A DNA stretch of 34,436 nucleotides from an uncultured archaeon (GCA_964525635.1 CAZGJX010000039.1:1-34436); one strand, 5' to 3'; positions 12,887-33,594 are shown, counted from the first letter of the stretch. The notes: generated from the sequence alone by a model not told the origin. Numbers and translations are program-made.

Positions 12887-13470
12887 GTATAGATAATAAA
12901 GAATTTAGATGTATTAAATGTGGTAAATGTTGTAAAGCAGGTTATATTGTTCCTATTCAAAAAATTGATATTAAAAAATGGAAAAATATGGAAAGAAATG
13001 ATTTATTAAATAATATTATGATAAATCCAAAATCTTTCAATATTAAAATAGATGTTAAAATACATTATGGTTCTAGTTCAGAAAAAAAAAAAGCAAATAT
13101 TATTTATCAATCTTATAATAAAAAAAAACAACTCTTAGTTAGATTTATAGAAAATAATCATAGATATTATAGAAAGAAAGAAATTCCTTTATCTTCATAT
13201 AAAAAAACTATTGGTTTTTATAAACAATATTATCCTGTAATAGTTCCAATTGATTTTAATACAGTTATTAATGGTTTGGAATTGGGTATAGAATATATAA
13301 TAAAATTGAATCCAATTGGTCGATGTCCTTTTTTAAGAATAAATCTATGTACAATTCATAAAGTAAAACCAATTGCTTGTAAGAAATTTCCATATGTTAA
13401 GGATAATTGTTTAAGAAATAATTATCAATTCATCTCAATTTATAAAAGAGCAAAAAAATTAAAAAAATAG
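12883..13470 (+). CDS. YkgJ/CxxCxxCC cysteine-cluster protein
   Basis: FRCIKCGKCC...CPFL..NLCTIHKVKPIACKKFP; 4-nt overlap with upstream gene. Confidence 0.85.
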   Translation: MSIDNKEFRCIKCGKCCKAGYIVPIQKIDIKKWKNMERNDLLNNIMINPKSFNIKIDVKIHYGSSSEKKKANIIYQSYNKKKQLLVRFIENNHRYYRKKEIPLSSYKKTIGFYKQYYPVIVPIDFNTVINGLELGIEYIIKLNPIGRCPFLRINLCTIHKVKPIACKKFPYVKDNCLRNNYQFISIYKRAKKLKK

Positions 13471-13748
13471 AATAAAAAAAAAAATTTTAGATTTTTTTTT
13501 CTTAAAATTTATGATGATTACTGAGAATTTATATTATTAATTCTCATTATTTAAAAGATATTTTATTCTCATAGTTCGGTTTCAATCCGATTTTCCATTA
13601 AAAAGAATATATTTTCCATGTAATTATTAATAAGACATTTTATTATAAGAAAATTCTGCTATGAGATATATAAAATTAAATATTATTGATTTGGAGAACT
13701 TTACCTAATGGAATTTAATACCAGAAATAATATCTATCTTCTTTGAAT

Positions 13749-14166
13749 TTAATAAATTCTATCAATTATTCCATCAAAATGATTATCAAATGAAATAATT
13801 GAATTGCATTTTGAAAATTCTTTTAAAAAAATTAATGAGGCATCTACAAAACTAAGAATCTTATTTGAAGATGTATATTTATACATTATTTCAGAGATCT
13901 CTCTATAGTTTTTCTTATTTAAATATATAATAGTGAAGAAACAATCATTACTCCAAAATAAGTGACCTAAATTTCTAATCGCTTCAGAATTTCCTCTTGT
14001 CCGGGCATTTATCAAGGTATATATTTCATTCACGACTAAGCTAGATGTAAAAAATTCATTTTCATCCCACTTGAGTTCTTTAGATAATTCTTTTGCTCTC
14101 TCATGATATTTATCATTTTTTACCTCTAGAGCAAATAAAAATCCTTGTATCTAATAAGATTTTCAT
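13749..14166 (-). pseudogene. vapC: VapC PIN-domain toxin with +1 frameshift near codon 7-8
   Basis: Removing one A gives MKILLDTGFLFALEVKNDKYHERAKEL...TSSLVVNEIYTL...SFVDAS...IISFDNHF, with the PIN acidic residues. Confidence 0.8.
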
Positions 14167-14193
14167 AATGTTTTATAATTATTTAATTAGTAT

Positions 14194-14462
14194 TTAGGGG
14201 ATCCCGTATAATAATTCATCATCAGATTTATCTAAATCATATAATTGATATTCTTTAGCATTGGTTAAAATTCTCTCTATTTTTTCAGAATTTGTTCTTT
14301 TTCAGCAGGATCTTCGTTAATTAATTCATTTAAATGTTCTTTTGAAAATTTTAAGCACTTTTCTAAAATCTCTTCATCAGAAAAGGTCTTGGAATATTGA
14401 TTTTGAATTGCTTCTTTTATCTTTTTTAGAACTTTATTATAATTTTCATTAATACTTTTCAT
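14194..14462 (-). pseudogene. Putative VapB antitoxin, frameshifted in an A-run
   Basis: ORF ends ...EQILKK*; adding one A continues KIERILTNAKEYQLYDLDKSDDELLYGIP*, a DELLYG tail typical of archaeal antitoxins; directly upstream of vapC. Confidence 0.6.
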
Positions 14463-14767
14463 AATAATAATAAAGAAAATCAAAATAATATATCTATTTA
14501 CTCTAAAAGTTACTTTTGCAACTAGTGGTTAATGCAGATTATTTTCTGAGTAAAACTGAATTCTTTTATCATTATATTCGAGAATTTTCTGATAAAATAT
14601 ACAATTTATAAATATTGAAAATTGGGATCAATTGATGTTCTCTTTTTTAAATATTATCTGAAAATTTAATTTTCCTACTAAGATTCGATATATTATGCAT
14701 TAATAATCTTATATATTAATGATATGACTGTTATCATTCATTAGAAGGAGTTTAGCAAAATCTAAAT

Positions 14768-15186
14768 TTCAATTCGATTTTCCATTAAAAAGAATATATT
14801 TTCCATGTAATTATTAATAAGACATTTTATTATAAGAAAATTCTGCTATAAGATATACCACGATAATGATATTTATTACATTTTGAACAATAATATTTTG
14901 TAATCTTAAATTCAACTCTTTTCTGCAATATCAGAATTTATTTATTCAAATCAGTAATATTAGATTTAAAAAGGTAAATTAATTAGATTCTAATTGAAAT
15001 AAAATGAATCCAGAATTCCTCATTATCAAAAGGTACAATTATCGCAGGATATCAATATACTCATAAATATACTTGCAAAAAGAAGAGTATTCCATATCTT
15101 CCTTTAAAAAAGGCTATAGAAAATTATTTTTCACATGAGAAAAATTTCAAAGGAAAATTAAAAACAATTTAGTTAAAAAGTAATTA
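14768..15186 (+). repeat. Mosaic of three direct-repeat fragments copied from ~13581-13670, ~7708-7864 and ~10337-10511
   Basis: Direct sequence comparison by eye; the third piece encodes the AlaDH-like C-terminus. Confidence 0.9.
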
Positions 15187-15357
15187 ATTTTCATTTAATA
15201 TTTGATCTTTATTTTTCAAGTAAACTATACATAACTTAGAGACAAAGGGATTTTCTTGAGTTATTATGATATAATGAATTAATATAATTATTTGGATATT
15301 TTCCTTTTATTGGTATATCTTATTTGAACAATAATGTTATTTATTTCTATATAAGAT

Positions 15358-15567
15358 TTAATTTGAACTTATAAATATACTATTTTTAATTTTGAATTCA
15401 TCAATCTCTATATAATCATCAAATTCTCCATAACTATTAATTGGTATTTTTAATACAATTTTTTGATTATTTAAATAGTAGTTATTGTATAATTCACTAC
15501 TATTTTTATCAAAATCAATGTATTTCTTAATCTCTTCTTCACGTTCATCATACATATATATACTCAT
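15358..15567 (-). CDS. Small acidic hypothetical protein
   Basis: 69-aa ORF, co-oriented downstream of the 54-aa ORF. Confidence 0.45.
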   Translation of the reverse strand: MSIYMYDEREEEIKKYIDFDKNSSELYNNYYLNNQKIVLKIPINSYGEFDDYIEIDEFKIKNSIFISSN

Positions 15568-15598
15568 ATATCACACTTTTTTTTTATTTTTAAATTTA

Positions 15599-15763
15599 TT
15601 ATACCAAATCTAGTAATTCTGATTTTAAAATTTCTTTTTCTTCCATAGTCAGTGAAGAAAAATGTTTTGTCTTTTCTCCTCTAAATAATATTTTTTTTCC
15701 TTTTATGATAGGAATTGAATTTTCTAACTTTGCACTATCTTCAGTTATATCATTATCCTGCAT
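15599..15763 (-). CDS. 54-aa hypothetical protein MQDNDITEDSAKLENSIPIIKGKKILFRGEKTKHFSSLTMEEKEILKSELLDLV
   Basis: Manual translation; GAGGTGA SD; paralog start at 41. Confidence 0.6.
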   Translation of the reverse strand: MQDNDITEDSAKLENSIPIIKGKKILFRGEKTKHFSSLTMEEKEILKSELLDLV

Positions 15764-15864
15764 TTTTATTTCACCTCATTATTTTAATTATCTTTACTAT
15801 AGGTTAATTGTCTATTTTTTCATATCTCATTTTAAATTACTTAATTTTAATTAATTTATAAAAA

Positions 15865-16056
15865 TTAATCATTAAGAACACCAATTCTTTTTGTTTCTTT
15901 AATCGTTGGATGTTCAATAATTTTACTAATTAAATAAGACTCCTTTGTTCTATTATCCAATATTTGTAATGAATTACAAATTCTACATCTAAGTACTTTT
16001 TTTCCATTATTTTTCTTAGGTAGTAACAATCCATCACATTCTTTACAAAACTTAAT
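15865..16056 (-). CDS. 63-aa TFS/RpoM N-terminal-like zinc-ribbon protein (copy 2), probable ATT start
   Basis: IKFCKECDGLLLPKKNNGKKVLRCRICNS...GVLND*; GAGGT SD; frame preserved relative to copy 1. Confidence 0.7.
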   Translation of the reverse strand: MKFCKECDGLLLPKKNNGKKVLRCRICNSLQILDNRTKESYLISKIIEHPTIKETKRIGVLND

Positions 16057-16136
16057 ATTTTTTACCTCTTGTTATTTTTTTTTTTAATTTAGAATAATTA
16101 GAACTCATATGTAATAAAAAAATCATAGTTAATTTA

Positions 16137-16790
16137 TTAGTTCTGAGCATTAATTGACTGAACTTCTTGTTTAAAAATAGAAATTTTATCTAAAGCAGAT
16201 AGATAATAATCCTCTTCAATTGAAGCAATATTGTCTAAAATATTTTTTAATTTTTCTTGTTTTTCTTTTTTAAATACCTTCTTCGATATGCTTAAATTAG
16301 AGTCTTCACATGCTACAATTCTTTTTGCTTCTTCTAATTCTGATTTAACCTTTCTTAATTTATCAGTCTTTTGATTTTCAATAGATTTCGATTTCTCTTT
16401 ATTATAATTGATCTGTGCCTTTTCAAGTATGTGTTGAGCATCTTTTAAACTATTCTTATCATCTTCTAATCTGTTATAAGTTTTTAAAAGTTCTTCTAAT
16501 TGACTTATAAATTTAAATTTTAATTTATCAGCTTTTATTTTTCTGAATTTCTCTATTTCTTCGTAACTATCAGCTAGAATATTTAAAAGATTTTTTAGAG
16601 AATCTTCTTCATTATTTGATAAATTTCTTATTGATTCAACTGTATCTATTGAAATCTCTGCTAAGTCTAATTGAGTATCTAAATAATCTTTGCTATTTTC
16701 TATTAATTCTTCAATTTTATTTTTATTAAAATTAAAAAGATTTTTTATACTTTGAGCAAATAATTTTATTTTACTTTTTATGTTTGTCAT
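16137..16790 (-). CDS. Standalone BAR-domain-like helical protein (copy 2)
   Basis: 217 aa, gap-free alignment to 476..1129; AAGGTGA SD. Confidence 0.6.
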   Translation of the reverse strand: MTNIKSKIKLFAQSIKNLFNFNKNKIEELIENSKDYLDTQLDLAEISIDTVESIRNLSNNEEDSLKNLLNILADSYEEIEKFRKIKADKLKFKFISQLEELLKTYNRLEDDKNSLKDAQHILEKAQINYNKEKSKSIENQKTDKLRKVKSELEEAKRIVACEDSNLSISKKVFKKEKQEKLKNILDNIASIEEDYYLSALDKISIFKQEVQSINAQN

Positions 16791-19143: not shown

Positions 19144-19701
19144 ATGGAAAATTATAATCCAAACTCTAAAAACGTTCAGGTGCTTATTTCAGAGAATGCT
19201 TATCTATCTCTTCTTCGCAATAGTTTAAAATATCGAGTATCAACAGGAAATTTAGCTGGATTCAAAAAAAATAATTTGATTGTTATAGGTAAAGCTAAAC
19301 ATTTTGTTGGTACAAATAAGCTTAATGAAGATATTTCATTTAAAAATGAAGATTATGTTAAATTAATGACTTGGGAAGAAAAATTGTATAACAATGATCC
19401 TCCTCATTATATCGTTGGATGGTATAAAATTTGGAAAGGAGATTTCATACCCCGGGGATATGATATAACAACTCAAATGGGTAAACAAGGGCTTAATCCT
19501 GAAGCATTTATGATAATCTTAAATCCAGATCAAATAACGAATGTAGATCCGGGTCTCAGAATAATCCGATTTAAAGATTTAACAGATCCGAGGGATGTTG
19601 AACTTGAATATCTTGATTTCAAAGTAGTTTTCATTGAGAAAAATAGGAAAATGTCTTATATTGATATTTTAAACAATTATCAAGTTAAAGTAGAGATTTA
19701 A
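19144..19701 (+). CDS. MPN/JAB-domain protein lacking the JAMM metal motif
   Basis: V.ISENAYL.LL..S, G.L.G, YIVGWY, DITTQ...Q.LNPEAFMIILNP follow Rpn11/CSN5/eIF3h-type MPN topology; HSH replaced by KIW. Confidence 0.75.
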   Translation: MENYNPNSKNVQVLISENAYLSLLRNSLKYRVSTGNLAGFKKNNLIVIGKAKHFVGTNKLNEDISFKNEDYVKLMTWEEKLYNNDPPHYIVGWYKIWKGDFIPRGYDITTQMGKQGLNPEAFMIILNPDQITNVDPGLRIIRFKDLTDPRDVELEYLDFKVVFIEKNRKMSYIDILNNYQVKVEI

Positions 19702-19773: not shown

Positions 19774-22614
19774 TCAAATATGCTTTTTTATAACTCTCCA
19801 TCTTAAAAAAATAAAAATAATAATAAATACAATTCCACAAATTAATGACATTAAGATATCGATCAATGAGGTAATCCAAACTATAGTTATTCCTGATCCT
19901 ATCGTAAAGATGTATTGGATAAATATTCGTAAATTTTCATTATGTTTTACATAGATAAATATGCACGCGCCTATGCAAACTCCTATTGAATAACTAATGT
20001 TAGTTGTTTCCTTTAATGTGCTATAATCCATAATTGCGAGTGAAAAAGCACCAATTATTCCAAAAATTAAAAATTGCCAGATATTCCTTTTTTCTTTTTC
20101 ATCGAAAGCTGTTTTTTTTATATGTCCAATCCCATTTCTATACAACGACCAAAATACCAAACCCGTACCAAAAATCTTTAAGAAAAAATGGCCAAAAAAG
20201 AGGTCTATATTTTCCAAAAAAGTAAGTTCTATATTATATCCAAGATTAACAAGAACATTAAGTAATTCATCAGGTATTGAGTATTCAAACAGAAAATTCA
20301 CAGCAGGAATTAGTTCCACAGTGAGTGTTGTTTTAACTACTGATCGTATAGCCCAAATTAATAAAATAACAACAAAAATATCAAAGATTTTATATATTTT
20401 TTTTTGAAAAACTACAACAGTAATTTTGATATAGCTTGAAATTGTAGGGATGATTGAAGCACCGATAAATAGATTTATTAATAGAGCTATCACAAATATG
20501 AGCCAAATTATTGGAAAAAAAGAGGGATTAGAGGTGAAATCAATAAAAAAATTGAAGGTAAAAAATCCTATTAATGCTATAATAGTTGCATACGCCAACA
20601 TACCGAATATGTTTTTTTTATTCCTTCTTCTAGTTCTTTTAACATCTCTATATTTTATTTCTTCTTCCAATTTACACATTTCTGATAAATTCATTAACCT
20701 ATCATACTCTTTTCCAGATGTTTTAAATGCTAAAGCTTTGAATTTTTTGGATCCCTCTTTAGATAAGAAGTTATGAGTTAAATTAACCTTCTTTAAATTA
20801 ACTAAATTACCCAAAGAATCTGGTAGGTATTTTAGGTTATTATTCTCTAAATTTAGAATTTCTAAATTCTGAAGATTTCCAAAAGATTCTGGAAGAATTT
20901 TTATTTTATTACCATATAAATTTAATTTTCTTAAAGATTTAAGGTTTCCAAAAGATTCTGGAAGAATTTTTAATTCATGAGAATCAAAATCAAGTATTGT
21001 CAAAGATTTTAAATTACCAAAATATTCTGGAAGTTCACTTAACGTTGCTTTATAAAAATATTTCGGAGCTTCCATATGTAATTCTTTAAGATTCTCTAAA
21101 ACACTGAAAAAATATGGAAGTTTTTTTAATGGATTATTATCTAAATACAATACTTCTAATAATTTTAATTTCCCAAAATCCTCGGGAAGGGTATTTAATA
21201 TATTATTCTCAATATGAAGTGTTTTTAATGATTTTAGATTTCCTATAGATGCTGGAATCATCATCAATCTGGTTAAAGCTAAATCTAAATCTTCAAGATT
21301 TTCCAATTTTGATATCTCATCTGGAAATGCAGATAATGGATTGCATCTAAGACTAAGTTTTTTCAGTGATTTTAATTTTTCAAATGATTTTGGAAGTTTT
21401 GTAAGTCCACAATTAAATAATCCAATACCTGTAACCCGTCCATTTGAGACCTTTATTCCAAAAGAGGTTTCAGATATATTAAATATTTGAGGAAAACCTC
21501 TTTTTTTAAATTTATCTATATCATGTGTGAATCTTACAAGAACAGAAGTTTTTAATTTGTTTAAAATTATATGTTCTAGATCTTCTAAGGCTTTAATTTC
21601 TTCAACATTGAAGATACAATTATTGTATTTTTCATTTGTGATATGAATTTCTTGGTTTTTTTTATTTTCCTCCAATAAACCGATAATATTATCAGCAATT
21701 TCTATGAAAATCTCCCTAATATTATATCCAGTTTTTGCAGATGACAATATATATGGGATACCAAATTTTTCAGCATTTTTTTTTAATTCTTTTTCTTTGA
21801 TAAAAGGTTTATCTATTAAATCTATTTTAGATCCAATTATCAAAATTGGAATTTCATATAGAACTGATTCATTTATTTCATCATACCATCTTTTTATACT
21901 TTTATAATAATTATTTTGAGTAATATCAATAACAATAATAACAGCATCCGCAAAATTATAGATTTTTTCTTTTGTTGGGTTGATTTGACAAATAAAACCA
22001 CCTGTATCCCAAATAAGGTAGTTAATTTTTGTATTTTCCGATATTTCTATATCTTTTTTATGAACCTCAAATCCTATGGTTGGTTTCAAATCTTCAAAAA
22101 ATATATCTTCAACGAATTTCTTTATTATTGAAGATTTTCCTGATTTATTATCTCCTATAAATACAATCTTTAAGGAGAAATGACCTTTGGGAATGATTCC
22201 ACCCTCAGATTTTGAGAAAAGTTTTAATATTCCGGGTATTTCAGAAGATATTTCTTGATTTCCCATTTTTATCGATTCAATTTTATCAGCAAGATGTACA
22301 GAATATACTTTTAATTCAATATCTGTGGTTGAGATTTCTGCAATTGTGGTAATCATTGTATATCCAAATGAGCAAATAACGTATTTTTTATCCTCTACTA
22401 TAAAGATTTCTAAAAAGGATTTGTCAATTCCATATTTATCATATATTTTATCAGTTTTTTTTTCAAGGAATTCTAGGATTAGTCCAATGGCAGACATTTC
22501 CCCTATTTTAATCATAATATTAGAGCTATCTATCCTATCTGTAATTATAACACCTATAATTCCCTTAACATTCTCCATATAGTTGAACAATAGTGTTTTT
22601 AGACGGTTTTCCAT
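19774..22614 (-). CDS. Roadblock-like / Rab-like small GTPase / leucine-rich repeat / multi-pass membrane fusion protein
   Basis: N-terminal VKGIIGVIITDR; G1 GDNKSGKSS, G2 PTIG, G3 WDTGG, G4 GSKID, G5 SSAKTG; ~9 LPESFGNLKSL..L.L..N repeats; ~7-8 hydrophobic segments at C-terminus. Confidence 0.85.
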   Translation of the reverse strand: MENRLKTLLFNYMENVKGIIGVIITDRIDSSNIMIKIGEMSAIGLILEFLEKKTDKIYDKYGIDKSFLEIFIVEDKKYVICSFGYTMITTIAEISTTDIELKVYSVHLADKIESIKMGNQEISSEIPGILKLFSKSEGGIIPKGHFSLKIVFIGDNKSGKSSIIKKFVEDIFFEDLKPTIGFEVHKKDIEISENTKINYLIWDTGGFICQINPTKEKIYNFADAVIIVIDITQNNYYKSIKRWYDEINESVLYEIPILIIGSKIDLIDKPFIKEKELKKNAEKFGIPYILSSAKTGYNIREIFIEIADNIIGLLEENKKNQEIHITNEKYNNCIFNVEEIKALEDLEHIILNKLKTSVLVRFTHDIDKFKKRGFPQIFNISETSFGIKVSNGRVTGIGLFNCGLTKLPKSFEKLKSLKKLSLRCNPLSAFPDEISKLENLEDLDLALTRLMMIPASIGNLKSLKTLHIENNILNTLPEDFGKLKLLEVLYLDNNPLKKLPYFFSVLENLKELHMEAPKYFYKATLSELPEYFGNLKSLTILDFDSHELKILPESFGNLKSLRKLNLYGNKIKILPESFGNLQNLEILNLENNNLKYLPDSLGNLVNLKKVNLTHNFLSKEGSKKFKALAFKTSGKEYDRLMNLSEMCKLEEEIKYRDVKRTRRRNKKNIFGMLAYATIIALIGFFTFNFFIDFTSNPSFFPIIWLIFVIALLINLFIGASIIPTISSYIKITVVVFQKKIYKIFDIFVVILLIWAIRSVVKTTLTVELIPAVNFLFEYSIPDELLNVLVNLGYNIELTFLENIDLFFGHFFLKIFGTGLVFWSLYRNGIGHIKKTAFDEKEKRNIWQFLIFGIIGAFSLAIMDYSTLKETTNISYSIGVCIGACIFIYVKHNENLRIFIQYIFTIGSGITIVWITSLIDILMSLICGIVFIIIFIFLRWRVIKKHI

Positions 22615-22993: not shown

Positions 22994-23398
22994 TTGTCTA
23001 AAAAAGAAATTATTGAAAATCTAAATAGTTTAATTCAGGAATTCACAAATTCTCAGAGTGATGTTCAAGGTCAAATTGTCATTGCTTTTCCTTCGGGTGT
23101 CCCAATAGCTAATAGTTGGGAAGGAACAATTAATCCAATTTTAGTTGGAGCACTATCTGCAGCTGTTAAATTAACTTTTCAGAATTTATGTGTACATTTA
23201 AACAAGGGAAATCTTAAAAGATTATTAATGAATAGTGAATATGGAAGAGCAATCATCCAAAATGCTGGTGAAAATGCTATTTTAACTACTTTAATTGATG
23301 GAGAAGCAGATATGTTAAGAATAGCATTTGGGGTAACTAATTTGGCTTTAGATATTGAAAAGATAATGAAAGATTATGAATTTACAGGTGAGATCTAA
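22994..23398 (+). CDS. Roadblock/LC7-domain protein
   Basis: 134 aa; DVQGQIVIAFPSGVPIAN, VGALSAA, L.KG.L....MNSEYG..II..AG..AIL pattern. Confidence 0.85.
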   Translation: MSKKEIIENLNSLIQEFTNSQSDVQGQIVIAFPSGVPIANSWEGTINPILVGALSAAVKLTFQNLCVHLNKGNLKRLLMNSEYGRAIIQNAGENAILTTLIDGEADMLRIAFGVTNLALDIEKIMKDYEFTGEI

Positions 23399-23400
23399 AA

Positions 23401-24372
23401 ATGACAGAAAAAACAGATTTATTAGAAATATTACAGGAAATTGAATTTATAACGGATATTAATGGTTGTTTTTTTATTAATGCAGAAGATAATAGTTTAA
23501 TAGAATCAACTATCCCATTTAATATTCGTAAAGAGATTTTATGGGAAATATGCGTATTGAAAGATACTTTTCAGCAATTCTCAGATGAGATTAAACATGG
23601 AGACCTTTCAGAACTGATGTTAGAAGGTGATAAAGGATATATTTTTCTTTTCAGTATTCCCCCTCACTTGGTTTTATTAGCTATGGCATCATATGAAACA
23701 AATATCTCTTATTTAAAATTAGCTATGATTGATATTTTAAAAAGAGTTAAAGTACGAATAAAGGAATTAGGTGATGATGTTTTAGCAATACCAGTTAAGG
23801 AATTTGTTGATATAGAACCGGCTAGACGTGCTCAAATTGCTATTAAGCCTACCAAACCAATCCCAGTTGCTACAGAACCTGCTAAACCTATTAAGGTTGT
23901 TAAGCCTATTCCTGTTGTTGCTGAACCTGCTAAACCTATTAGAGTTGTTGAACCTACTCCTATTGCTACTGAGCCTGCTGAACCTATTGAAGTAGTTGAA
24001 CCTATTCCAGTTGCTGCTGAACCTACTCCATTAGTCTCTATTGCTAAAGTTTCAGAAGCAGAGGAAATGAATATTGAAACCATGATTGATTCTATAAATA
24101 GTAAAGAACTCACAGATAAATATATGGTTCTTAAGAAAATATTCGATAAATTAAAAAATGATATAAAAACACTTACTGGCGTAAAGATTTCAAAAATTCT
24201 CGATCTTCTAAAGGATTCTATATTAAATAATATAGGAACTTCGCTTGCTCTTTTTGATCTCTCAAGAAGTTCTAAAGATTTAAGTAAAAATTATGAATCA
24301 TTACAACCAGATGAAATAAATAAACTTAAAAACAAAATAGACAATTGGTCAAGTCGAATTATAAAATTATAG
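23401..24372 (+). CDS. Roadblock-like domain, Pro-rich repeat linker and helical C-terminal domain
   Basis: HGDLSELMLEGDKGYIFLF...LVLLAMA roadblock pattern; 2-nt gap to upstream gene. Confidence 0.75.
   Translation: MTEKTDLLEILQEIEFITDINGCFFINAEDNSLIESTIPFNIRKEILWEICVLKDTFQQFSDEIKHGDLSELMLEGDKGYIFLFSIPPHLVLLAMASYETNISYLKLAMIDILKRVKVRIKELGDDVLAIPVKEFVDIEPARRAQIAIKPTKPIPVATEPAKPIKVVKPIPVVAEPAKPIRVVEPTPIATEPAEPIEVVEPIPVAAEPTPLVSIAKVSEAEEMNIETMIDSINSKELTDKYMVLKKIFDKLKNDIKTLTGVKISKILDLLKDSILNNIGTSLALFDLSRSSKDLSKNYESLQPDEINKLKNKIDNWSSRIIKL
23854..24030 (+). repeat. Coding tandem repeat, 48 bp/16 aa, ~3.7 copies
   Basis: KPIPVATEPAKPIKVV / KPIPVVAEPAKPIRVV / EPTPIATEPAEPIEVV / EPIPVAAEPTP. Confidence 0.9.
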
Positions 24373-24383
24373 AGGTGATAAAA

Positions 24384-24893
24384 ATAAGTCTGATTTTATA
24401 TGAAGTAGAAGGTAGAGAAATACTTCCAGTAGAAGAAGCGACATTCGAGAGTAATAAGATTTATATTATAATAGATAAACACAGAAAAAAAAGATCAAAA
24501 ATATGGATATGGAGTGGTCCTGACTCAAATATATTAGACAGATATTTCGCTGGAGTATCTGCAACCAGAATTAAATCAAAAGAGAAACTTTATGGAGCTA
24601 GCATAGAAGTTGTTGAGAGTGGAAATGAACCTAAACAATTTCCGAAACTCACAAAAGATAGGATTATGAAACCAACTGAAGAAGAACCATCCTTTATGTC
24701 TGAAGATATTGTAGAAGAAGTATCCAAAGCTGAGGATATATTCATAGAAGAAGTTCATTCTGAACCATTATTAATACCAAAGGAGAGTGGAGATATGATA
24801 TCCATTCAAAAAATGACTGGTTTCTTAAAAGAATTATCACTAGATCTTGGAAAAATGAGAGAAAAAATCAACAAGTTTTTGTCAGATTTGTAA
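24384..24893 (+). CDS. Single gelsolin-like domain protein with acidic linker and C-terminal helix; probable ATA start
   Basis: LYEVEG...FESNKIYIII...IWIWSG..S...R..A..I......IEVVESGNEPKQF is a gelsolin-domain signature; GAGGTGA at 24372-24378 precedes ATA. Confidence 0.75.
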   Translation: MSLILYEVEGREILPVEEATFESNKIYIIIDKHRKKRSKIWIWSGPDSNILDRYFAGVSATRIKSKEKLYGASIEVVESGNEPKQFPKLTKDRIMKPTEEEPSFMSEDIVEEVSKAEDIFIEEVHSEPLLIPKESGDMISIQKMTGFLKELSLDLGKMREKINKFLSDL

Positions 24894-24960
24894 AATAAGG
24901 AGTTTAATCAGAAATTAAATTAATTTTATTAATATTTTTAGTAGAGAGGTTGAATATTTT

Positions 24961-26277
24961 ATGTTAGACGCAAGTGTAGGAATAACAACAGAAAAAGATA
25001 GTTATTTGGCAGGAAAAAAAGTTGCTAAAGAGACCTTAGGAGGGATGAGTTCAAAACCTAAATTAGCAATATTAGCTATAGATTCACTTACTCGAAGACA
25101 TTTTAATAATAAAGAAGTCCTAAGGGGAGTAAGAGATGAACTTGGTCCAGATGTAACACTAATTGGTAGTACTGTTAATGGAATATTGGTAAAAGATCGT
25201 TTCGCACTAAGAAGTATAGGTTTAATGTTATTAGGTGGTGATATATCTGTCGATTCATCTTATAATTACAATAAATCGAGGATAGAATATAAAAGTATTG
25301 CAGAAAAAATATACCAAAAAGCAAGTGCTTTAGAACCTAAAGATAATCGAATTATGATAATGTTTCAAGATGGAATGAAATTTCCCCCCGAAATCTTAGC
25401 TAAACAGAATTCATTAAATAGTCGAGTAGTTTCCTTATTATCTGGTTTAGTAAACAGATTTTTTAAAAGACAACTAGAAGATATGAAAGAACAAGGAATG
25501 GGAATGCCTACGGTTCAAGAATTACTTGAAGCCCTTTATGCAAAAGGATATAATCTTCCAGTAATTGGAAATATTTCAACTAATATACGCGATTACGATT
25601 CTGAAGAATTTTATAATGATGAAGTTGGGACAGACAAGGTTGTTGGAGCTATTTTATCTGGAAACAGTTCAACTAAATTTGGTTTTGGATTTGCTGCAGG
25701 AGCAGAATCTATGGGAAAAAAATGCAAACCTACGAAAAATATAGGAAATTTTATTTTAAAGATTGATGGAAAACCTGCTTTATTAGGTTTGTGTTCAGCT
25801 GTGGGAATAAATATAGAATCATTACATGAGTTAAGATCTTCAGATTATCTGAATTATTATTTAATATTAGGTACTAAAGAAATGATAAAGGATAAAGAAT
25901 ATATACATCTAACAGCGACAATCACTAATCCTGAGCTTGAAAGTCTTATTAATACAGGATTTCCATTTGATCGAGTTCCTGACGAAATTGAAATCTTTCA
26001 GAGTAATATGAATATACTCCATAAAACAGCAGAAAGATCGATAAGTCAAGCTTTAGCTAATATTTCAAATCCTAAATTTCTTTTAGGAATAGATTGTGCA
26101 ATACGATTTATCGCGTATGGTGATAATTTCCCAAAGATTATAAAAACAATTGATGATATTATTGGTAAAGATATTCCTAGAATGATCATTGGTTCTGGTG
26201 GTGAAATATATGGAACCAAAGATGTAGATTGGTATTTTAACAATATGACGTATGTAACCTTGGCAGGAGGAGATTAG
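24961..26277 (+). CDS. Standalone FIST N/C-domain sensory protein
   Basis: DSY.AG...A, LIGST..G, N.ILKIDGKPAL, DCAIRF, GGEI...FNNMT.V.L motifs. Confidence 0.8.
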   Translation: MLDASVGITTEKDSYLAGKKVAKETLGGMSSKPKLAILAIDSLTRRHFNNKEVLRGVRDELGPDVTLIGSTVNGILVKDRFALRSIGLMLLGGDISVDSSYNYNKSRIEYKSIAEKIYQKASALEPKDNRIMIMFQDGMKFPPEILAKQNSLNSRVVSLLSGLVNRFFKRQLEDMKEQGMGMPTVQELLEALYAKGYNLPVIGNISTNIRDYDSEEFYNDEVGTDKVVGAILSGNSSTKFGFGFAAGAESMGKKCKPTKNIGNFILKIDGKPALLGLCSAVGINIESLHELRSSDYLNYYLILGTKEMIKDKEYIHLTATITNPELESLINTGFPFDRVPDEIEIFQSNMNILHKTAERSISQALANISNPKFLLGIDCAIRFIAYGDNFPKIIKTIDDIIGKDIPRMIIGSGGEIYGTKDVDWYFNNMTYVTLAGGD

Positions 26278-26420
26278 TTCATCTATATGAAATTGGAAAA
26301 TAAAAGTATTATTTAATTTTTTTTTTAACTTAAATAAAGGATAATCTTTATAATTAAATTTTATCTTATTCGATAAATATTAAAATAATTATTATCACCA
26401 AATGGACAAACATTTATTAA

Positions 26421-27611
26421 TTGATAAAAATGATAATAGATGAGTTATTAACTAAGGGTAAACAAAATTTTCGTGAAGACAATCAAGAAAAAGTTAAAAA
26501 TGAACGTTTTAAAGCAATATTAGAAACGGTAAAGCATCAATTTGAAAAATGTGGTTTCTATCGTCAATTTTGTCGACAAAAGAATTTTAATCCTACCAAC
26601 TTGAAATCAATTGATGATATTGCTAAAATACCTTATTTAACTACAGCAAACTTTAAAAAAAGATCAGGAAGACCGAAGGAATTATTATGTGTTCCCGAGA
26701 GTGATATTCTTGTCTGGACTATGTCAAGTGGCACTTCAGGAGACCCTTCTTTAATTGGAAGAGATTTAAAGCATTTAGAACGATATTTCATAATGTTTGA
26801 TTTTGTTCTAGAAGAATTATGTAATTTGACACATTATGATTGGTCTTTCTTTTTTCAACCAAAACCCAGACAGAGATTAACGAATAAAGATAAGGTCCCT
26901 CAACCTCTAAACCATATGGGTTACATATTCAATGTTGCAAATAAACTTCCTATGGAAAAACGATATTATGCTCTAAAATTAGCAGATGAAGAATCAAGGA
27001 AAAAAGGTAAAATTTTTGAATTTGATGCTGAAACAGCATTTGGATTCTTTAATTCAAATCCAGTAGAAAAGGGGATTGGTTGGATTGGAGGTGCTGTTCC
27101 TTTAATGTATGGATCTTTAAAAGGATATTATGAAAAAACAGGTCAAGGATTTAATGTTGGGAAAGATACTATATTTGTATCTGGAGGGGGATGGAAATCT
27201 TTTTCAGGAGAGGCTGTTTCACCCGTTAAATTTCGGGAAGATATGACAAAAATCTTAGGAATCCCAAAAGAACAAATCTTAGATGTATATAGTTTTACTG
27301 AGACAGATTGTGTTCATGCTGAATGTGAATATCATAATAAACATCTTCTACCTTGGCAAGATATTGTAGTAAGGGATGTTGAAACTTTAGAACCTGTGGA
27401 AATGGGTGAAAAAGGTCTTAATAATGTAATTAATCCTATTGCTTATAGTTTCGCTGGTGTATCAATTCTACAAGATGATATTGTTCGGGTTGTTATGGAA
27501 GATGATTGTCCTTGCGGAAGAAAAGGTAAAGTTATTGAGGTTTTAGGTAGAGCAGAAGGTGCAGAAGCTAAGGGATGTGGGGCTCAAATGACAGAAGAAA
27601 CCAATATATAA
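26421..27611 (+). CDS. luxE: LuxE-family acyl-protein synthetase (fatty-acid activating)
   Basis: IPYLTTANFK, SSGTSG, GGGWK, DVYSFTE, SILQDD, CPCGRKG...VLGRA.GAEAKGC with the C-terminal acylation Cys; start may be ATG 26430. Confidence 0.85.
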   Translation: MIKMIIDELLTKGKQNFREDNQEKVKNERFKAILETVKHQFEKCGFYRQFCRQKNFNPTNLKSIDDIAKIPYLTTANFKKRSGRPKELLCVPESDILVWTMSSGTSGDPSLIGRDLKHLERYFIMFDFVLEELCNLTHYDWSFFFQPKPRQRLTNKDKVPQPLNHMGYIFNVANKLPMEKRYYALKLADEESRKKGKIFEFDAETAFGFFNSNPVEKGIGWIGGAVPLMYGSLKGYYEKTGQGFNVGKDTIFVSGGGWKSFSGEAVSPVKFREDMTKILGIPKEQILDVYSFTETDCVHAECEYHNKHLLPWQDIVVRDVETLEPVEMGEKGLNNVINPIAYSFAGVSILQDDIVRVVMEDDCPCGRKGKVIEVLGRAEGAEAKGCGAQMTEETNI

Positions 27612-27703
27612 AAATATAAGAATAATTGAATTATACTTTAAAAAACATTATCTTATTTTTATTTTTAAAAATAATTATATTTTATTTTTTTTATTTTATT
27701 GTT

Positions 27704-29392
27704 ATGAAAAAAAGAATTAATATTCCTGGATTTATTTTTAAACCTATTTATTCTGAAAGTACTACAAAAGAGGAAATTAAACGTCAGGAGGATATTTTAG
27801 AGATTGAATTTCCTGTTTTTAATAAGAATCAAGTTTTAAAAACAGCTGAACTCCTTGCTCTAAAAAAGAGAAGAGCTCATGATAGACATATAGATGATAT
27901 TTTAGATGTTATTGATCAATTAGGTGCATTATGGCGGGATCCATATTATGATCTTCGTAAAGAAGCATTAGAAATCCTTCCAATGATAACAGGACAATCT
28001 AAAAAATTAATTGAAATTGAACTCATGGCAACCCTAATAATGTGCGAAAGAAAGATTGCAGAGGCTCAATTAATTGGTGAGATTGGAGGCAAACAATATT
28101 TAGAAGATTGGATTCCAAGAGGTAATACAAGAATTCATGCTCAACCTCGAGGTCTCGTTTTTCATAATCTTGCAGGTAATGCATTTAACTTAGGATTATT
28201 AACACTCTTTTTTGGTCTAATAACTAAAAATGTTAATTTAATCAAATTATCCCATGGAGAACCATACTTTTTAATAAGAATTTGCGAATCTATTTATGAT
28301 ATTGATAAAAAAATAGCGAAAGAAATTGCTGCAATTTATTGGAAAGGGAGTAGTGGTGACATTTATGATGAATTGTTTAATTCTGGATATGTTGATTGTG
28401 TTTTAGCTTGGGGGGGAATTCAATCAATCGAAGAAATAAGAAGAAGAGCATATCGTTATGGTATAAAAATAATAGATCATGGACCAAAACTATCTTTTAG
28501 TGTTATATCAGATGATATATTTAAAAATATTGAAGTAATGAGAGAATCCGCGAGGAAAATTGCCTTAGATTTAGTATACTGGAACCAAAAAGCATGTTTA
28601 AGCCCAAGAATAATATATATTGTGGAAAAACCCCAAAAAGTTGATTTTTTTAAAAAATTTAGTAATGGAACATCAGAAGAGAATGATAATAATAAAATAT
28701 TTTCTTCAATTGAAGAAGTTCTTTCTGATAGTATCACGGAATCTTCTTATACTTTAAATTCAAATAGTATTATTTCTCAAATGCAACGCTCAATGAAGTT
28801 ACTTAAGGATGAAATTTCGGAATTATCAACAAAAGCTTTTGCAAAATTATTAGCTCAAGGATTAAAAGAGGCAAATATAATGCTTCCCCGTTCTCACCTA
28901 ACACAAGCAGATGGTATACAGATGAATAAAAAGAGAGAATATTTTATGATGAATTATGCTTTTAAAAAACGTGCTATCCTTTATTATCCTTCCAAAGATA
29001 AATTAGATTGGACTGTTGTTTTTTTGCGAGATTTGCCTTCCATGCTTGAAGTAGATATGTGCCAAGACCGATTTGTTATAGTTACAAGAATTTCAAATAT
29101 ACAAGATTTAATATATTCTATAAGAAAAGAACATTTACAGCAGTATCTTCAAACAGTATCAATCTATGGTTCAGATAATTTTGTTAAAGAAGTATCTGAA
29201 GAATTATCATTATTAGGAGCAAATAGATTTCCAAGAATAGGCGAACATAACATTCAATCTATTGGGATGCCATGGGATGGCCATTATACACTTCAAGAAA
29301 TGATAAAATGGGTTTATATTGCATTTCTTAATAAAGAATCCGAGGAAGATGACAATGGAAGGATTAATCTAATGGATGGGTTTGATGGATAA
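27704..29392 (+). CDS. luxC: LuxC-family acyl-CoA/acyl-protein reductase
   Basis: PRGLVFHNLAGN, AWGG, HGPKLSF, WNQKACLSP catalytic Cys, YLQTV, GMPWDG..L motifs; likely start MKKRI at 27704. Confidence 0.88.
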   Translation: MKKRINIPGFIFKPIYSESTTKEEIKRQEDILEIEFPVFNKNQVLKTAELLALKKRRAHDRHIDDILDVIDQLGALWRDPYYDLRKEALEILPMITGQSKKLIEIELMATLIMCERKIAEAQLIGEIGGKQYLEDWIPRGNTRIHAQPRGLVFHNLAGNAFNLGLLTLFFGLITKNVNLIKLSHGEPYFLIRICESIYDIDKKIAKEIAAIYWKGSSGDIYDELFNSGYVDCVLAWGGIQSIEEIRRRAYRYGIKIIDHGPKLSFSVISDDIFKNIEVMRESARKIALDLVYWNQKACLSPRIIYIVEKPQKVDFFKKFSNGTSEENDNNKIFSSIEEVLSDSITESSYTLNSNSIISQMQRSMKLLKDEISELSTKAFAKLLAQGLKEANIMLPRSHLTQADGIQMNKKREYFMMNYAFKKRAILYYPSKDKLDWTVVFLRDLPSMLEVDMCQDRFVIVTRISNIQDLIYSIRKEHLQQYLQTVSIYGSDNFVKEVSEELSLLGANRFPRIGEHNIQSIGMPWDGHYTLQEMIKWVYIAFLNKESEEDDNGRINLMDGFDG

Positions 29393-29420
29393 AAAGGAAT
29401 TTTAAAAAAATTTGAATTTT

Positions 29421-31217
29421 TTAAATCACTAAAATATCTAAATCTTTCTTTATTGTATGAAGTTTGTTCTTTTTTTTATATAATGCGATAATACTTAATT
29501 TACGTGATTTTAAATTATCCTCTTTATCATAATGTTTTTTAAAATTCCATTTTAAAAGAAATGCCTCGTTTGGTCCTAAGATTTTAGGGATATGATTTTT
29601 TAGTTCTTTTTTTTTTTTTTTTTTAAAGATATCTTTAGGATAATCTATAATTATATATAAATCAGTTATTATTTCTGAAGATAAATTCTTAATTTGTATA
29701 AATAATTTTATTACTGAATTAAAATCTTGAGGTTTACGAATTAACTTCCATTGTTTTAAAAATAAAAGATCATTATTAATATCAGATTTTGGTATAATGG
29801 ATTCTAAAACATTTTCAGTAATTTTGGCACTTATCAAATTCTTTTTCAAGAGTATTGATATAACATCCGTAATTTTTGACTTATGGATATTATATTTAAA
29901 ACATATTTCATCAAGATTTACTGCTCTTTTTTTTATCTCCAATGATAACCACTCGCTTAAATCTAAATAGGAAAGTTCAGGCATTACTTCACTTAAAAAT
30001 GCAATTAATTCTTTTCTTAAGGTTTCCGCTTCAAAATCTTCTAGTTTTCCTGCTTCATTTAATTGATGATATATGTTTAAATAGATATCATATTGTGGAA
30101 CCGCTTTTAATAACATCCTTAATTTTGTATAATTTGCCAAATCAAATTTTTTTACCATCTCAATGATTAATTGTGAAAATAATGAATCTACAAATTTTGG
30201 ATCCCTAATATATAATTTTTTAAGAATATTTGTAAGAGTGATATTGAATTGAATATCTATTAAGGTTGTATGTATAAATAAATACTCAAATCTTAAAAAA
30301 CCATGTTTTTTTATTGAAAATTTTAAAAGATTTTCAATTGCTTCAATATTATCAAAGGTATCATCATTTAAATATGAGAAAAATGCATCATCAAATAATT
30401 TAACATGATATTCCATTATTTCTTTGATAGCTTTAGAAACTGCTTTGTTTACTAAAAAATCATCATGATCTAGGAATAATACTATTTCTCTAGTGAGGGG
30501 TTGGATTAAATCTTTCTTTTTTATGCCTAATTTTCCTATCAGAAAAATTATCTTTTCTTGAGCTATCCAATTCCTATTAAGAATTGAATTTACTAAGCTT
30601 TTAAAATCTTTAATAGAATAAGTTTTAATAATTAAATTAAATAAAAAGTCTAAAATTTCCCATTTAACATCTTTATCTTCTTCATCATACAATACATCTA
30701 ATTCATTATTAAATTCCTTAATGAATTCAGCTCTTTCTAAAATTATATCATTTAAGAATCCTATTATCTGCATTCTTATGTTCCAAAAATCATCTTTTAA
30801 ACATTTAATTAAACTAATAATAATTTTATTCTCAAATTTTGGACATTCATTAAAAATTTTAATTAAAAAATCGATAAATTTACGTCTTACAATAGGTTCA
30901 AAATGACTTAATTTGGAGATTATAAAATCAATCTCATCATCAATTAGATTAAGATCATTAATTAATGTATTTGTATATAAATTAATTGACATTTCCTGTA
31001 TATTCTCATCATAGGAATCTATTAATTTTTTAATTTCTTGGAAGTGATGTTGTGATAAATAGTTCCCCTTTTTTTGTATCTGTTGAATACCTTCTAAAAT
31101 ATCTGATAAAGGTAAAATATCTTCTTCATTGATTAATGATACTAAGTTATTTAATGCTTTTTCATAATTACCAGATTTAATATCTTCTTTTATTTTATTT
31201 AAGTTAATTTCTGTTAT
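29421..31217 (-). CDS. HEAT/ARM-repeat protein with a putative winged-helix and C-terminal beta-sandwich; frame extends to a probable ATA start at 31217
   Basis: LKDDFWNIR, DEEDKDVK, LDHDDFLV HEAT motifs; frame open 75 codons upstream of ATG 30992; C-terminal LFIQIKNLS..ITDL.I.IDYP...LGPNE...KW.F. Confidence 0.75.
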   Translation of the reverse strand: MTEINLNKIKEDIKSGNYEKALNNLVSLINEEDILPLSDILEGIQQIQKKGNYLSQHHFQEIKKLIDSYDENIQEMSINLYTNTLINDLNLIDDEIDFIISKLSHFEPIVRRKFIDFLIKIFNECPKFENKIIISLIKCLKDDFWNIRMQIIGFLNDIILERAEFIKEFNNELDVLYDEEDKDVKWEILDFLFNLIIKTYSIKDFKSLVNSILNRNWIAQEKIIFLIGKLGIKKKDLIQPLTREIVLFLDHDDFLVNKAVSKAIKEIMEYHVKLFDDAFFSYLNDDTFDNIEAIENLLKFSIKKHGFLRFEYLFIHTTLIDIQFNITLTNILKKLYIRDPKFVDSLFSQLIIEMVKKFDLANYTKLRMLLKAVPQYDIYLNIYHQLNEAGKLEDFEAETLRKELIAFLSEVMPELSYLDLSEWLSLEIKKRAVNLDEICFKYNIHKSKITDVISILLKKNLISAKITENVLESIIPKSDINNDLLFLKQWKLIRKPQDFNSVIKLFIQIKNLSSEIITDLYIIIDYPKDIFKKKKKKELKNHIPKILGPNEAFLLKWNFKKHYDKEDNLKSRKLSIIALYKKKNKLHTIKKDLDILVI

Positions 31218-31582: not shown

Positions 31583-31840
31583 CTATTTTTTCATTTTTAC
31601 TCGTAATTCTGCAATCTTCCAGCAAAGCTCATCGTTACCATATGATAGCTCAGAAATTTCTTTAGCTTTTTCTTCTATTTTAAATTTGGAAATCCTTCCA
31701 GGAATCTCTCTTTCACTTTGAATTGATTCTTCAGCAAAGATCCAACATAATTCATCATAAGATAATTTCTTTTCAGAGAGGTAATATGCTTCCTGTTCAA
31801 TTTTATTTTTTAAATCCTCTAGATTATCGGATTCAGTCAT
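31583..31840 (-). CDS. Small protein with an internal duplicated motif (DUF2934-reminiscent)
   Basis: KIEQEAYYLSEKKLSYDELCWIFAE / KIEEKAKEISELSYGNDELCWKIAE. Confidence 0.75.
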   Translation of the reverse strand: MTESDNLEDLKNKIEQEAYYLSEKKLSYDELCWIFAEESIQSEREIPGRISKFKIEEKAKEISELSYGNDELCWKIAELRVKMKK

Positions 31841-31978
31841 AATTAAATATCATTTAATTTTATTTGAATTTTATAATTGAAGATTATAATTAAAAACTTG
31901 TATTTAAATTTAGGTTGTTTATGAACTTTTTATTTTATAAATAAAAGACTTTAATTTAGTATTTTATTTTCCTTTTTT

Positions 31979-33159
31979 ATGAAATATCGAAAAATGGGAT
32001 CATTAGACTGGGATGTATCTATATTGGGATTTGGTGCAATGAGACTTCCAATAAAACAATCATGGGATGATATAGATTATGAAAAGGGAATAAAAATGGT
32101 AAGATATGCTATTGATCACGGAGTTAACTATGTAGATACTGCTTGGCCTTATCATGTTGAAAAATCAGAAGTATTCTTAGGAGAGGTATTGAAAGATGGT
32201 TATCGAGAAAAAGTAGAATTAGTATCTAAAAGCCCTATTTGGTTAGTACTAACTCAAGATGATCTTGAAAAATATTTAGATCTCCAATTGAGTAAATTAC
32301 AAACAAGTTATTTGGATATCTATTTATTACATGGATTGAATCAAGATAAATTGAAGAAAATTAAAAATTTAGATCTTTTAAAAAGATGGAGGAATTAAAA
32401 GCTAAAGGTAAAATCAAACATATAGGATTTTCATTTCATGGTTCTTATGAAACCTTCAAAGAAATTATAGATTCTTATCCTTGGGAAATAGCTCAGATCC
32501 AATATAATTATCTTGATGTTGATTATCAAGCAACTATTAAAGGATTAGATTATGCTTATTCTAAGAAAATTGCTGTTGTTATCATGGAACCCTTACGTGG
32601 TGGTAAATTAGTGGAAAGTAATTTGACAGTAGAAGAATTACTAAAAACAGCTCCAAATAAGAGAATATTAGCAGATTGGGGGCTCCAATTTACCTGGAAT
32701 CATCCGGGAGTTTCTGTTGTCTTAAGTGGTATGAGTAATTTACAGCAAGTAAAAGAAAATATTGTAAGTGCTGAAAATTCTAAGTCAAATTCGTTAACTG
32801 AAGAAGAATTAGGATTCATTGAGAAATTGAGAAATTATTATAAGTCAAGAATCAAAGTAACATGTACTAATTGTAAGTATTGTATACCATATCCACAAGG
32901 AGTAAATATACCTGAGAATTTTAATCTTATAAATAGTGCCGCATGGGAGGGCATAGTTGAGGATTGGGTTCAAAATTCGTATGATGAATTAGATGATGAT
33001 AGTATAGATACAGATTGGCATGGTAAAGGAAAAGCAAATCTTTGTATAAAATGCGGGGAATGTCTTGAGAAGTGTCCTCAATTAATTGACATTCCCACTG
33101 AATTAGAAGATGTGAAACTTATCTTTGAAGAAGGTAAACCAATTAAAGACTTCATATAA
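31979..33159 (+). pseudogene. Aldo/keto reductase with C-terminal 4Fe-4S domain, frameshifted at ~32376-32385
   Basis: LGFGAMRLP, GVNYVDTAWPYH, IGFSFH, MEPLRGG, CIKCGECLEKCPQ; one added base joins the two ORFs; CxxCxxCxPCP has Cys to Tyr. Confidence 0.85.
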
Positions 33160-33594
33160 TACCCTTTCCTTTTATATACTTAATTGAATATTATATTTCT
33201 TTTAATAGTATAGAATAAAAATTATATCATTTGATAATATCAATCAGTAATAATCTTTATTTTTACTAATTTAATAAATTTTTATACTATATTCTTTTAT
33301 AGAAAAAGAAACTAATTTTCTGTTAACAATATACTCATAAGCTTTGATGAGATATATAAGATGTGGTGAAACACCACCCCTACTTCCGCTCAATGTTATT
33401 CCAATGGATTATCATAGTTAGGGAGGTTAATAATGATCTTTGTATTGAAAGAAGCAATTTAATGAATATATATGGAAAAGGAATCCCAAATGCCATTTTG
33501 GTGGATGGGATAGAGGCATTCGGACTGATGCCACAGATAAAGTATCATAATCTTTATGATATTATCATTTGAAATAAAATGAGTATCATTTTAT

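Follow-up and report, generated by a model that had tools for sequence, protein, structure and literature searches.

The window analysed here is a stretch of 34,436 nucleotides from an uncultured archaeon with a genome of 4.45 Mb and a G + C content of 26.8%. On its minus strand, 19774..22614 form one stop-free ORF encoding a 946-aa protein, in which a roadblock domain (aa 1-122), a Rab-like GTPase domain (aa 146-312), an LRR domain (aa 330-615) and an eight-helix membrane domain (TM8, aa 669-939) follow one another. The gene assignment rests on this ORF and on 23 other 90% clusters with a GTPase-LRR-TM chain, and Met1 is invariant across the family alignment.

The fusion gene and its homologues

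A search with the TM region recovered 24 clusters (90%), the window protein and 23 others, every one of them with Ras and LRR domains. They originate from NCBI, JGI, ENA and Logan, on contigs of up to 700 kb. The homologues, labelled Lokiarchaeota/Promethearchaeota by NCBI, are collinear over their full length with the 946-aa protein at 44-66% identity; the roadblock is carried by the 14 clusters of about 946 aa and missing from the 10 of about 800 aa. Adding six members from genome searches gave a set of 30 fused members.

The four modules in one chain that an earlier note had read from the sequence were borne out by Pfam, the AlphaFold2 model and the collinear homologues. That note had also raised the possibility of a chimeric assembly, which now has a negligible probability. 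Four independent sources supply the 23 other clusters with this chain, no long genomic repeat spanning any domain junction was found in a genomic repeat check, and the GTPase and TM trees largely agree on subclades. Because the same chain is found in independent assemblies, the fusion is not chimeric, and the chimera reading is refuted. The fusion gene is broken or partial in several assemblies. The full-length AlphaFold2 model (pTM 0.44, TM part mostly at pLDDT <50) is uninformative on contacts between domains.

GTPase domain

The Rab-like small GTPase domain (21679..22179, minus strand) was assigned from Pfam, matches to solved structures and the family alignment. Pfam Ras matched residues 149-310 with an E value of 2.7e-34, ahead of Roc (3.5e-20) and Gtr1_RagA (3.5e-07), and the closest solved small GTPases were Rab22A, Rab31, Rab6A and Rab1 (E about 1e-23 to 1e-22). 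The Ras fold and the G1, G2, G4 and G5 motifs of the superfamily are kept. All 24 members have G1 Gly/Lys, G2 Thr, G3 Gly-Gly, G4 Lys/Asp and G5 Ser, and core nucleotide-binding residues are retained in 23-24 of the 24 despite 44-66% overall identity.

The G3 motif, WDTGGF (21994..22011, minus strand), was compared in an alignment of fused members and stand-alone parents, which puts Phe207 at the position of Ras Gln61. Among the 24 members it is occupied by Leu in 17 and by Phe in 7, and all 30 fused members have Leu or Phe there; the stand-alone roadblock-GTPase (RB-GTPase) parents have DxGGQ, with Gln in 26/26. Therefore, the loss of Gln dates to the fusion. The two motifs, G3 DTGGF lacking the catalytic Gln and G4 SKID, are as the note had read them, and the Gln loss proved to be fixed family-wide. 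SKID itself is no defect, as Lys and Asp are invariant, and the Thr or Ser that replaces the G4 Asn in 22/24 members also stands for Asn in many GTPases of the same genome. Position 157 in the P-loop is Lys, Gln, Glu or Arg and never Asn, so that the Asn of K+-activated TEES-type GTPases is absent. Switch II has a conserved motif of its own in the fused members and is one residue longer than is typical.

Gln-to-Leu exchange serves as an experimental block of hydrolysis in Asgard ArfR proteins (10.1101/2024.02.28.582541). With Leu or Phe in place of the catalytic Gln, the fused G domain probably hydrolyses GTP slowly and is mostly GTP-loaded at the membrane. We infer slow hydrolysis rather than state it, because FeoB and other HAS-GTPases that carry a hydrophobic residue there have different means of hydrolysing GTP (PMC3153494); the catalytic Gln can also come in trans from GAPs (PMC4316618). 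The domain is under purifying selection yet changes faster than TM8, and between the same genome pairs its identity is 57-70% as against 70-77% for the parent. One member, L093, forms a long branch in the GTPase tree.

Roadblock domain

No Pfam match was obtained for the N-terminal 122 aa of the window protein (22249..22614, minus strand), which were assigned as a degenerating roadblock domain from the model, profiles and the family alignment. In the AlphaFold2 model the order of elements, alpha-bb-alpha-bbb-alpha, is the roadblock topology. A profile of the domain matched independent PF03259-labelled proteins (E 1e-6 to 3e-5), and hhalign against a roadblock set gave a probability of 98.4%. 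As this set was grown by iteration and contains related fusions, the direct PF03259 matches are the cleaner evidence. The domain is paralogous to the roadblock of a stand-alone RB-GTPase of the same genome (G000:C20:34580-35539).

The roadblock is present in 19/30 fused members and absent in 11/30, and strongly supported branches of the GTPase tree force at least three changes for its loss. At a single syntenic locus, with a HAD hydrolase upstream and a GTPase cluster downstream, it is present in two orthologues and absent in three. Positions D26, G29, S31 and G44, invariant in the parent, drop to 0.2-0.4 in the fused roadblocks, and identity between the same genome pairs is 47-60% for the fused roadblock versus 72-78% for the stand-alone parent; some residues are invariant among the 19 members that retain the domain. 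Judged by these alignments, the fused roadblock is decaying and has been lost at least three times. The note had proposed a built-in regulator; since the domain is repeatedly lost, even among syntenic orthologues, and eroded at parent-invariant residues, an obligatory regulator of this kind is unlikely. The faster change of the fused G domain and roadblock relative to the parent is also compatible with decay.

LRR domain and C-cap

An N-cap and nine LRRs (aa 330-615; 20770..21627, minus strand) were delimited from Pfam (LRR_8/LRR_14), the model and the alignment, and SHOC2 gave one of the best matches to a solved LRR (E 8e-47). The length is fixed in the fused members: the spacing from G3 to the C-cap is 408-424 aa in 29 of them, so that repeats were neither gained nor lost, and about 350 aa of LRR stand between the G domain and the membrane. 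GTPase-less relatives have 5-12 N-terminal repeats.

Concave-face positions are conserved at 0.67-0.80 versus 0.40-0.50 for other exposed positions, and they are largely acidic, with D444 at 100%, E469 at 93%, E515 at 100% and D542 at 90%; the genome-wide background for those repeat positions is 7% Glu and 22% Asp. The acidic, conserved concave face suggests a fixed, basic partner. The LRR is followed by C-cap helices with an FKALAFK motif and a basic helix (aa 616-668; 20611..20769, minus strand), which the model and alignment predict to continue into TM1.

Eight-helix membrane domain

TM8 (aa 669-939; 19798..20610, minus strand) was defined by the model, loop charges and family searches. The C-terminal part, folded with 48 homologues, gave eight membrane helices (pLDDT 85, pTM 0.77); of the seven to eight segments counted in the note, eight therefore stand in the model and seven do not. 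The family mean of Lys+Arg per loop is 6.3/0.4/5.1/1.4/5.2/0.7/3.0/0.0/3.2. Because these residues alternate loop by loop, both termini are placed in the cytoplasm (N-in/C-in), and with an N-in topology the roadblock, GTPase and LRR are all cytoplasmic. No signal peptide is apparent in the 946-aa protein. The LRR, being cytoplasmic, is not a receptor ectodomain.

The only large outer loop, the sole sizeable outer part, is that between TM3 and TM4 (aa 763-805, 43 residues; 20200..20328, minus strand). In the model and alignment it is acidic, has three short helices and includes the near-invariant residues E767, P781, Y793, N802 and D804. Conservation peaks over TM3, this loop and TM4, with D745 at 96% and R757, E767 and D804 at 98%; P781, Y793, N802, W822 and G828 are likewise conserved within 96-100%. 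N714, H809 and K813 are further conserved polar or charged residues in or near the membrane. The C-cap and TM regions have the lowest dN, which in nearly all domains and pairs stays under the uncorrected synonymous difference; the C-cap and TM8 are the slowest-changing and best conserved parts of the chain. The suggestion that the TM region goes beyond a simple anchor has thus held up: TM8 with the LRR C-cap is the best conserved part, and, going by the alignment, a plain anchor would not need near-invariant residues of this kind.

TM8 lies outside the Pfam and NCBIfam families. Its sequence had no match at cut-off in Pfam, NCBIfam or PADLOC, its 48-row profile had none among PDB sequences, and ESM Atlas features gave no usable match. 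No internal repeat of TM1-4 against TM5-8 was found (hhalign probability 0.8%). Homodimer prediction for the C-cap and TM8 region gave a score of 0.16 (mark 0.42). By these searches, TM8 is an unnamed membrane family.

Distribution and origin

The TM8 profile matched 25/400 genomes of the phylum, once each, with five candidates scored per genome and many genomes incomplete. Scored in the same way, matches fell in 22/134 genomes of the window's own family, with two weak matches elsewhere. A deeper search of 41 relatives matched six, from two genera, and an unfiltered search of 1.84 billion representatives returned only 24 matches. The patchy occurrence of the gene (22/134 own-family genomes) was counted against the reading preferred below. 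TM8 is nearly always accompanied by an LRR and its C-cap motif. Several matches of the unfiltered search have no GTPase and show the arrangements LRR-TM8, LRR-TM8-LRR and TM-LRR-TM8, one being labelled Helarchaeota and one Lokiarchaeota. Two short stand-alone TM8 matches on contigs of 1.3-1.5 kb look truncated.

RB-GTPase architectures have been described for MK-D1 (PMC10933270). The own-genome paralogue of the first 315 aa is the stand-alone RB-GTPase of 319 aa (G000:C20:34580-35539), with 36% identity in the roadblock and 41% in the G domain. Orthologues of this stand-alone protein (about 320-330 aa) are found in most of the 41 relatives; within the order the protein is near-core. The GTPase tree groups all 30 fused members in a single clade (SH-aLRT 99), placed inside the stand-alone RB-GTPase family, which is itself split from the other GTPases of the genome at 99. 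The TM tree, built from rows of at least 230 aa, unites the GTPase-bearing members in one clade (SH-aLRT 95) and leaves the GTPase-less proteins outside it. Both trees come from quick searches with no bootstrap, and long branches lead to the GTPase-less outgroup. On these trees the most economical account is that a duplicated RB-GTPase fused once to an older LRR-TM8 gene, and TM8 appears to predate its GTPase partner.

Gene neighbourhood

Two roadblock genes lie 380 bp upstream of the fusion gene in divergent transcription, as part of an operon (22994-29392) of two roadblocks, gelsolin, FIST, LuxE and LuxC. The operon stays together as a unit in congeners, though at other sites. In two congeners it does not adjoin the fusion gene, and in genomes G002 and G003 it is on other contigs than the fusion gene. 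In G001 and G002 the fusion gene adjoins an aldo-keto reductase region, which in the window starts about 9 kb away (31583-34359). Other members are surrounded by redox genes, an ESCRT region or GTPase clusters. A system formed with the roadblock-gelsolin-FIST-LuxE-LuxC operon was rejected by synteny, and the role once envisaged for the neighbouring roadblocks loses its basis in the two congeners. Among the loci compared, no gene neighbour common to the whole family was found, nor were conserved transporter- or metal-related neighbours. The lack of a conserved neighbour to supply input or output speaks against the reading preferred below.

Comparison with known systems

By sequence, the 946-aa protein belongs, in derived form, to the Asgard RB-GTPase fusions (Tran et al. 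2024, PMC10933270). As in these, the roadblock is N-terminal to a small GTPase, and the N-terminal 315 aa are a paralogue; unlike them, it has LRR and TM8 added, Leu/Phe for Gln, a degenerate or lost roadblock and a membrane-integral chain. Like Roco proteins (LRR-Roc-COR; PMC4316618), it combines an LRR with a Ras-like G domain in a single chain, and Pfam Roc matches it (E 3.5e-20). Pfam confirmed the earlier observation that the order differs from Roco: the GTPase precedes the LRR and no COR domain was matched in the window protein. The Ras model also scores higher, there are eight TM helices, and the G domain is RB-GTPase-derived. Like FeoB (PMC3153494), the protein pairs an N-terminal, cytoplasmic G domain, in which a hydrophobic residue takes the place of Gln61, with a C-terminal polytopic membrane domain; unlike FeoB, its G domain is of Ras/Rab and not TEES type, it has no K+-binding P-loop Asn, an LRR is interposed, and TM8 also occurs without a GTPase. 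By profile, the FeoB membrane domain had no Pfam or NCBIfam match in the window protein and no Pfam match in the 48 aligned members.

In contrast to eukaryotic Rabs, the chain has no C-terminal cysteines (it ends RVIKKHI), no Gln61 and its own membrane helices, and it differs from a GPCR/LGR-type receptor in having eight helices, an N-in/C-in topology and no apparent signal peptide. LRRC8/VRAC has four TM helices and a C-terminal cytoplasmic LRR, and LGR4/5 has an extracellular LRR and seven TM helices. Both join an LRR solenoid to a multipass membrane domain, as here, and the LRR of LRRC8 is also cytoplasmic; however, sequence matches are confined to the LRR, and the present protein has eight TM helices and an N-terminal cytoplasmic LRR. 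A membrane protein, roadblock and GTPase come together in SLC38A9-Rag-Ragulator, and in SHOC2-MRAS an LRR binds GTP-loaded Ras. These two are analogies only, the homology seen being limited to generic LRR and G-domain folds. In Rag GTPases the roadblock follows the GTPase, whereas here it is N-terminal, and Gtr1_RagA scores E 3.5e-07 versus 2.7e-34 for Ras. On the tested features we place the protein outside Roco, Rab, Rag, FeoB, GPCR/LGR and LRRC8, with a resemblance to FeoB in logic.

Proposed mechanism

Our preferred reading, tentative and given somewhat less than an even chance, takes the LRR-TM8 core to be a sensor or docking protein of the membrane that has a conserved outer loop and carries a slow, mostly GTP-loaded switch. 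The functional core would be the LRR-TM8 unit at the plasma membrane, with sensing at the outer loop presumably passed through the eight helices and the continuous TM1 helix to the cytoplasmic LRR, which would dock a partner. On the simplest history, a housekeeping roadblock-Rab-like GTPase was duplicated in the ancestor of the clade and the copy joined to the N-terminus of LRR-TM8. The fused G domain has kept its nucleotide-binding motifs and swapped Gln for Leu/Phe, so it probably hydrolyses slowly and stays mostly GTP-loaded. It would serve the membrane sensor as a docking or regulatory element that depends on the nucleotide state, presumably coupled to the LRR and to any output. Switching off would occur only via a trans-acting GAP or a shift in GTP/GDP. 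The roadblock would have come along as a passenger of the fusion and is now being lost. We consider unlikely the more specific proposal of TM8 as a sensor or channel of undescribed fold, in which an outer-loop ligand acts through the TM1 helix and LRR on the fused GTPase.

The main rival, a FeoB-like GTP-gated transporter or channel, is also given a low probability. TM8 would carry an ion, solute or lipid, the re-entrant TM3-TM4 loop would confer selectivity, and gating would fall to the G domain without Gln. An N-terminal HAS-type G domain with a polytopic membrane domain, as in FeoB (PMC3153494), the conserved polar and charged residues N714, D745, R757, D804, H809 and K813 in or near the membrane and the three short helices between TM3 and TM4 all fit such a transporter; against it, several relatives have TM8 without any GTPase, the LRR of about 350 aa stands between G domain and membrane, the P-loop does not have the Asn typical of K+-activated TEES GTPases, TM1-4 and TM5-8 show no internal repeat, and conserved transporter or metal-related neighbours were not found among the loci compared. 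Less probable again is a membrane tether replacing prenylation, by which a constitutively active Rab-like GTPase would mark a membrane domain and recruit effectors, with TM8 serving position or lipid preference and not sensing. Thorarchaeal and MK-D1 Rabs have no C-terminal prenylation cysteines and were not membrane-localised, and lipid anchors are missing from the Asgard Rabs examined to date (PMC10933270); every soluble domain here is cytoplasmic, and Gln was lost at the fusion. Tethering would not, however, need eight helices and a near-invariant outer loop, and TM8 is better conserved than the GTPase and appears older.

The repeated roadblock loss, the G domain diverging faster than its parent, the change of the G4 Asn to Thr/Ser in 22/24 members and the long branch of L093 could instead mean that the roadblock-GTPase half is a passenger decaying toward a pseudo-GTPase, and that only LRR-TM8 matters. 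This is quite improbable in view of the core nucleotide-binding residues kept in nearly all members at such overall divergence and the conserved motif of switch II. Moreover, no clearly complete fused-clade member lacks the G domain, the few short ones being on small contigs or near contig ends. We regard as more improbable still a self-contained receptor, whose own or next-door roadblocks would act as GAP or GEF on the fused GTPase. Roadblock/longin dimers are GEFs or GAPs of small GTPases, e.g. MglB-MglA (PMC10933270), two roadblock genes lie divergently 380 bp upstream, and the domain is kept in 19/30 members with some residues invariant; but it is missing in 11/30, same-locus orthologues included, its parent-invariant D26, G29, S31 and G44 have eroded, and the fusion gene lies by the aldo-keto reductase in G001 and G002, with the roadblock operon on other contigs in G002 and G003.

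Implications

No published description of the roadblock-GTPase-LRR-TM8 architecture was found in a literature search that covered subscription papers only in part. From the trees and profile searches, the family is a Rab-like switch fused once onto an LRR scaffold and an unnamed eight-helix domain, found mostly within a single Lokiarchaeia family. It is an open question by what route small GTPases of Asgard archaea get to membranes, or act there, in the absence of prenylation (PMC10933270), and almost all Asgard LRR proteins are of unknown function (10.64898/2026.10.28.762692). The family offers a defined, expressible case of a Rab-like domain joined covalently to an LRR and a membrane domain, the fusion fixing the switch in the membrane. 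Lineage-specific shuffling of ESP domains is common in Asgard (10.1101/2020.10.19.343400), and a late, lineage-restricted fusion such as this one shows the potential of the parts, not the inventory of the eukaryote ancestor. Were the sensor/channel reading true, it would be an archaeal one-chain receptor-coupled G-protein switch, independent of GPCRs and built from eukaryote-like parts. Natural controls exist in the Gln-bearing soluble parent, the roadblock-less orthologues and the GTPase-less LRR-TM8 relatives.

Stand-alone and GTPase-less relatives of the fusion protein

The parent of the fused module, the roadblock and Rab-like GTPase part of the fusion protein, is a stand-alone roadblock-Rab-like GTPase, encoded in the window's own genome at G000:C20:34580-35539 (locus L029). 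Across the order this protein is near-core and in most cases single-copy, and its G3 Gln, at the position of Ras Gln61, is invariant; it is a worthwhile target independently of the fusion. The eight-helix membrane domain TM8 was also found in five proteins without a GTPase (P0028, P0031, P0033, P0048 and P0047), which constitute an LRR-TM8 family without a name. The group comprises proteins in which TM8 is flanked by two LRR arrays, both of which are cytoplasmic according to the topology, and one protein that carries an additional multipass domain at its N-terminus.

Broken copies and surroundings of the fusion gene

In genome G231 the fusion gene lies in two frames, with the break within the LRR (L096:4771-7619), and in G203, G217, G223 and G228 it is present as fragments only; these copies are pseudogenes or assembly breaks. 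In one subclade a convergent tandem array of four small GTPases, with roadblock genes nearby, is located downstream of the fusion gene (L009:11700-14280, L012:11691-14516 and L024:7574-10305). Some 5 kb separate a member lacking the N-terminal roadblock (L010:363-3202) from a cluster of ESCRT genes (Snf7, Vps4, ESCRT-II, EAP30), and the gene order of L017 resembles this arrangement. The proximity to ESCRT genes is probably only positional.

In the window, the fusion gene is separated from its usual neighbours by a block at 22994-30992, comprising an operon for a roadblock protein, a roadblock protein with Pro-rich repeats, gelsolin, FIST, LuxE and LuxC, together with a 523-aa gene on the opposite strand. 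The roadblock-gelsolin-FIST-LuxE-LuxC block is kept in the congener G002 (L105), and in part in the congener G003 (L106), at a different site. The gene for an ICMT/PEMT-like membrane methyltransferase (33595-34359) likewise lies close to the fusion gene in both G001 and G002, but not in other genera. In G001 and G002 the aldo-keto reductase with a 4Fe-4S domain is encoded by one gene of 393 aa, whereas in the window it is split into two overlapping ORFs of 139 and 257 aa (31979-33159), the result of a frameshift or an assembly error. The convergent gene downstream of the fusion gene (19144-19701), with a weak JAB/MPN match (E 0.036), was absent from this position in the other genomes checked. 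A highly AT-rich stretch of about 2.6 kb (13470-16137) has only short ORFs, all on the minus strand, which by eye appear PIN-like, antitoxin-like and zinc-ribbon-like; it possibly represents decayed genes.
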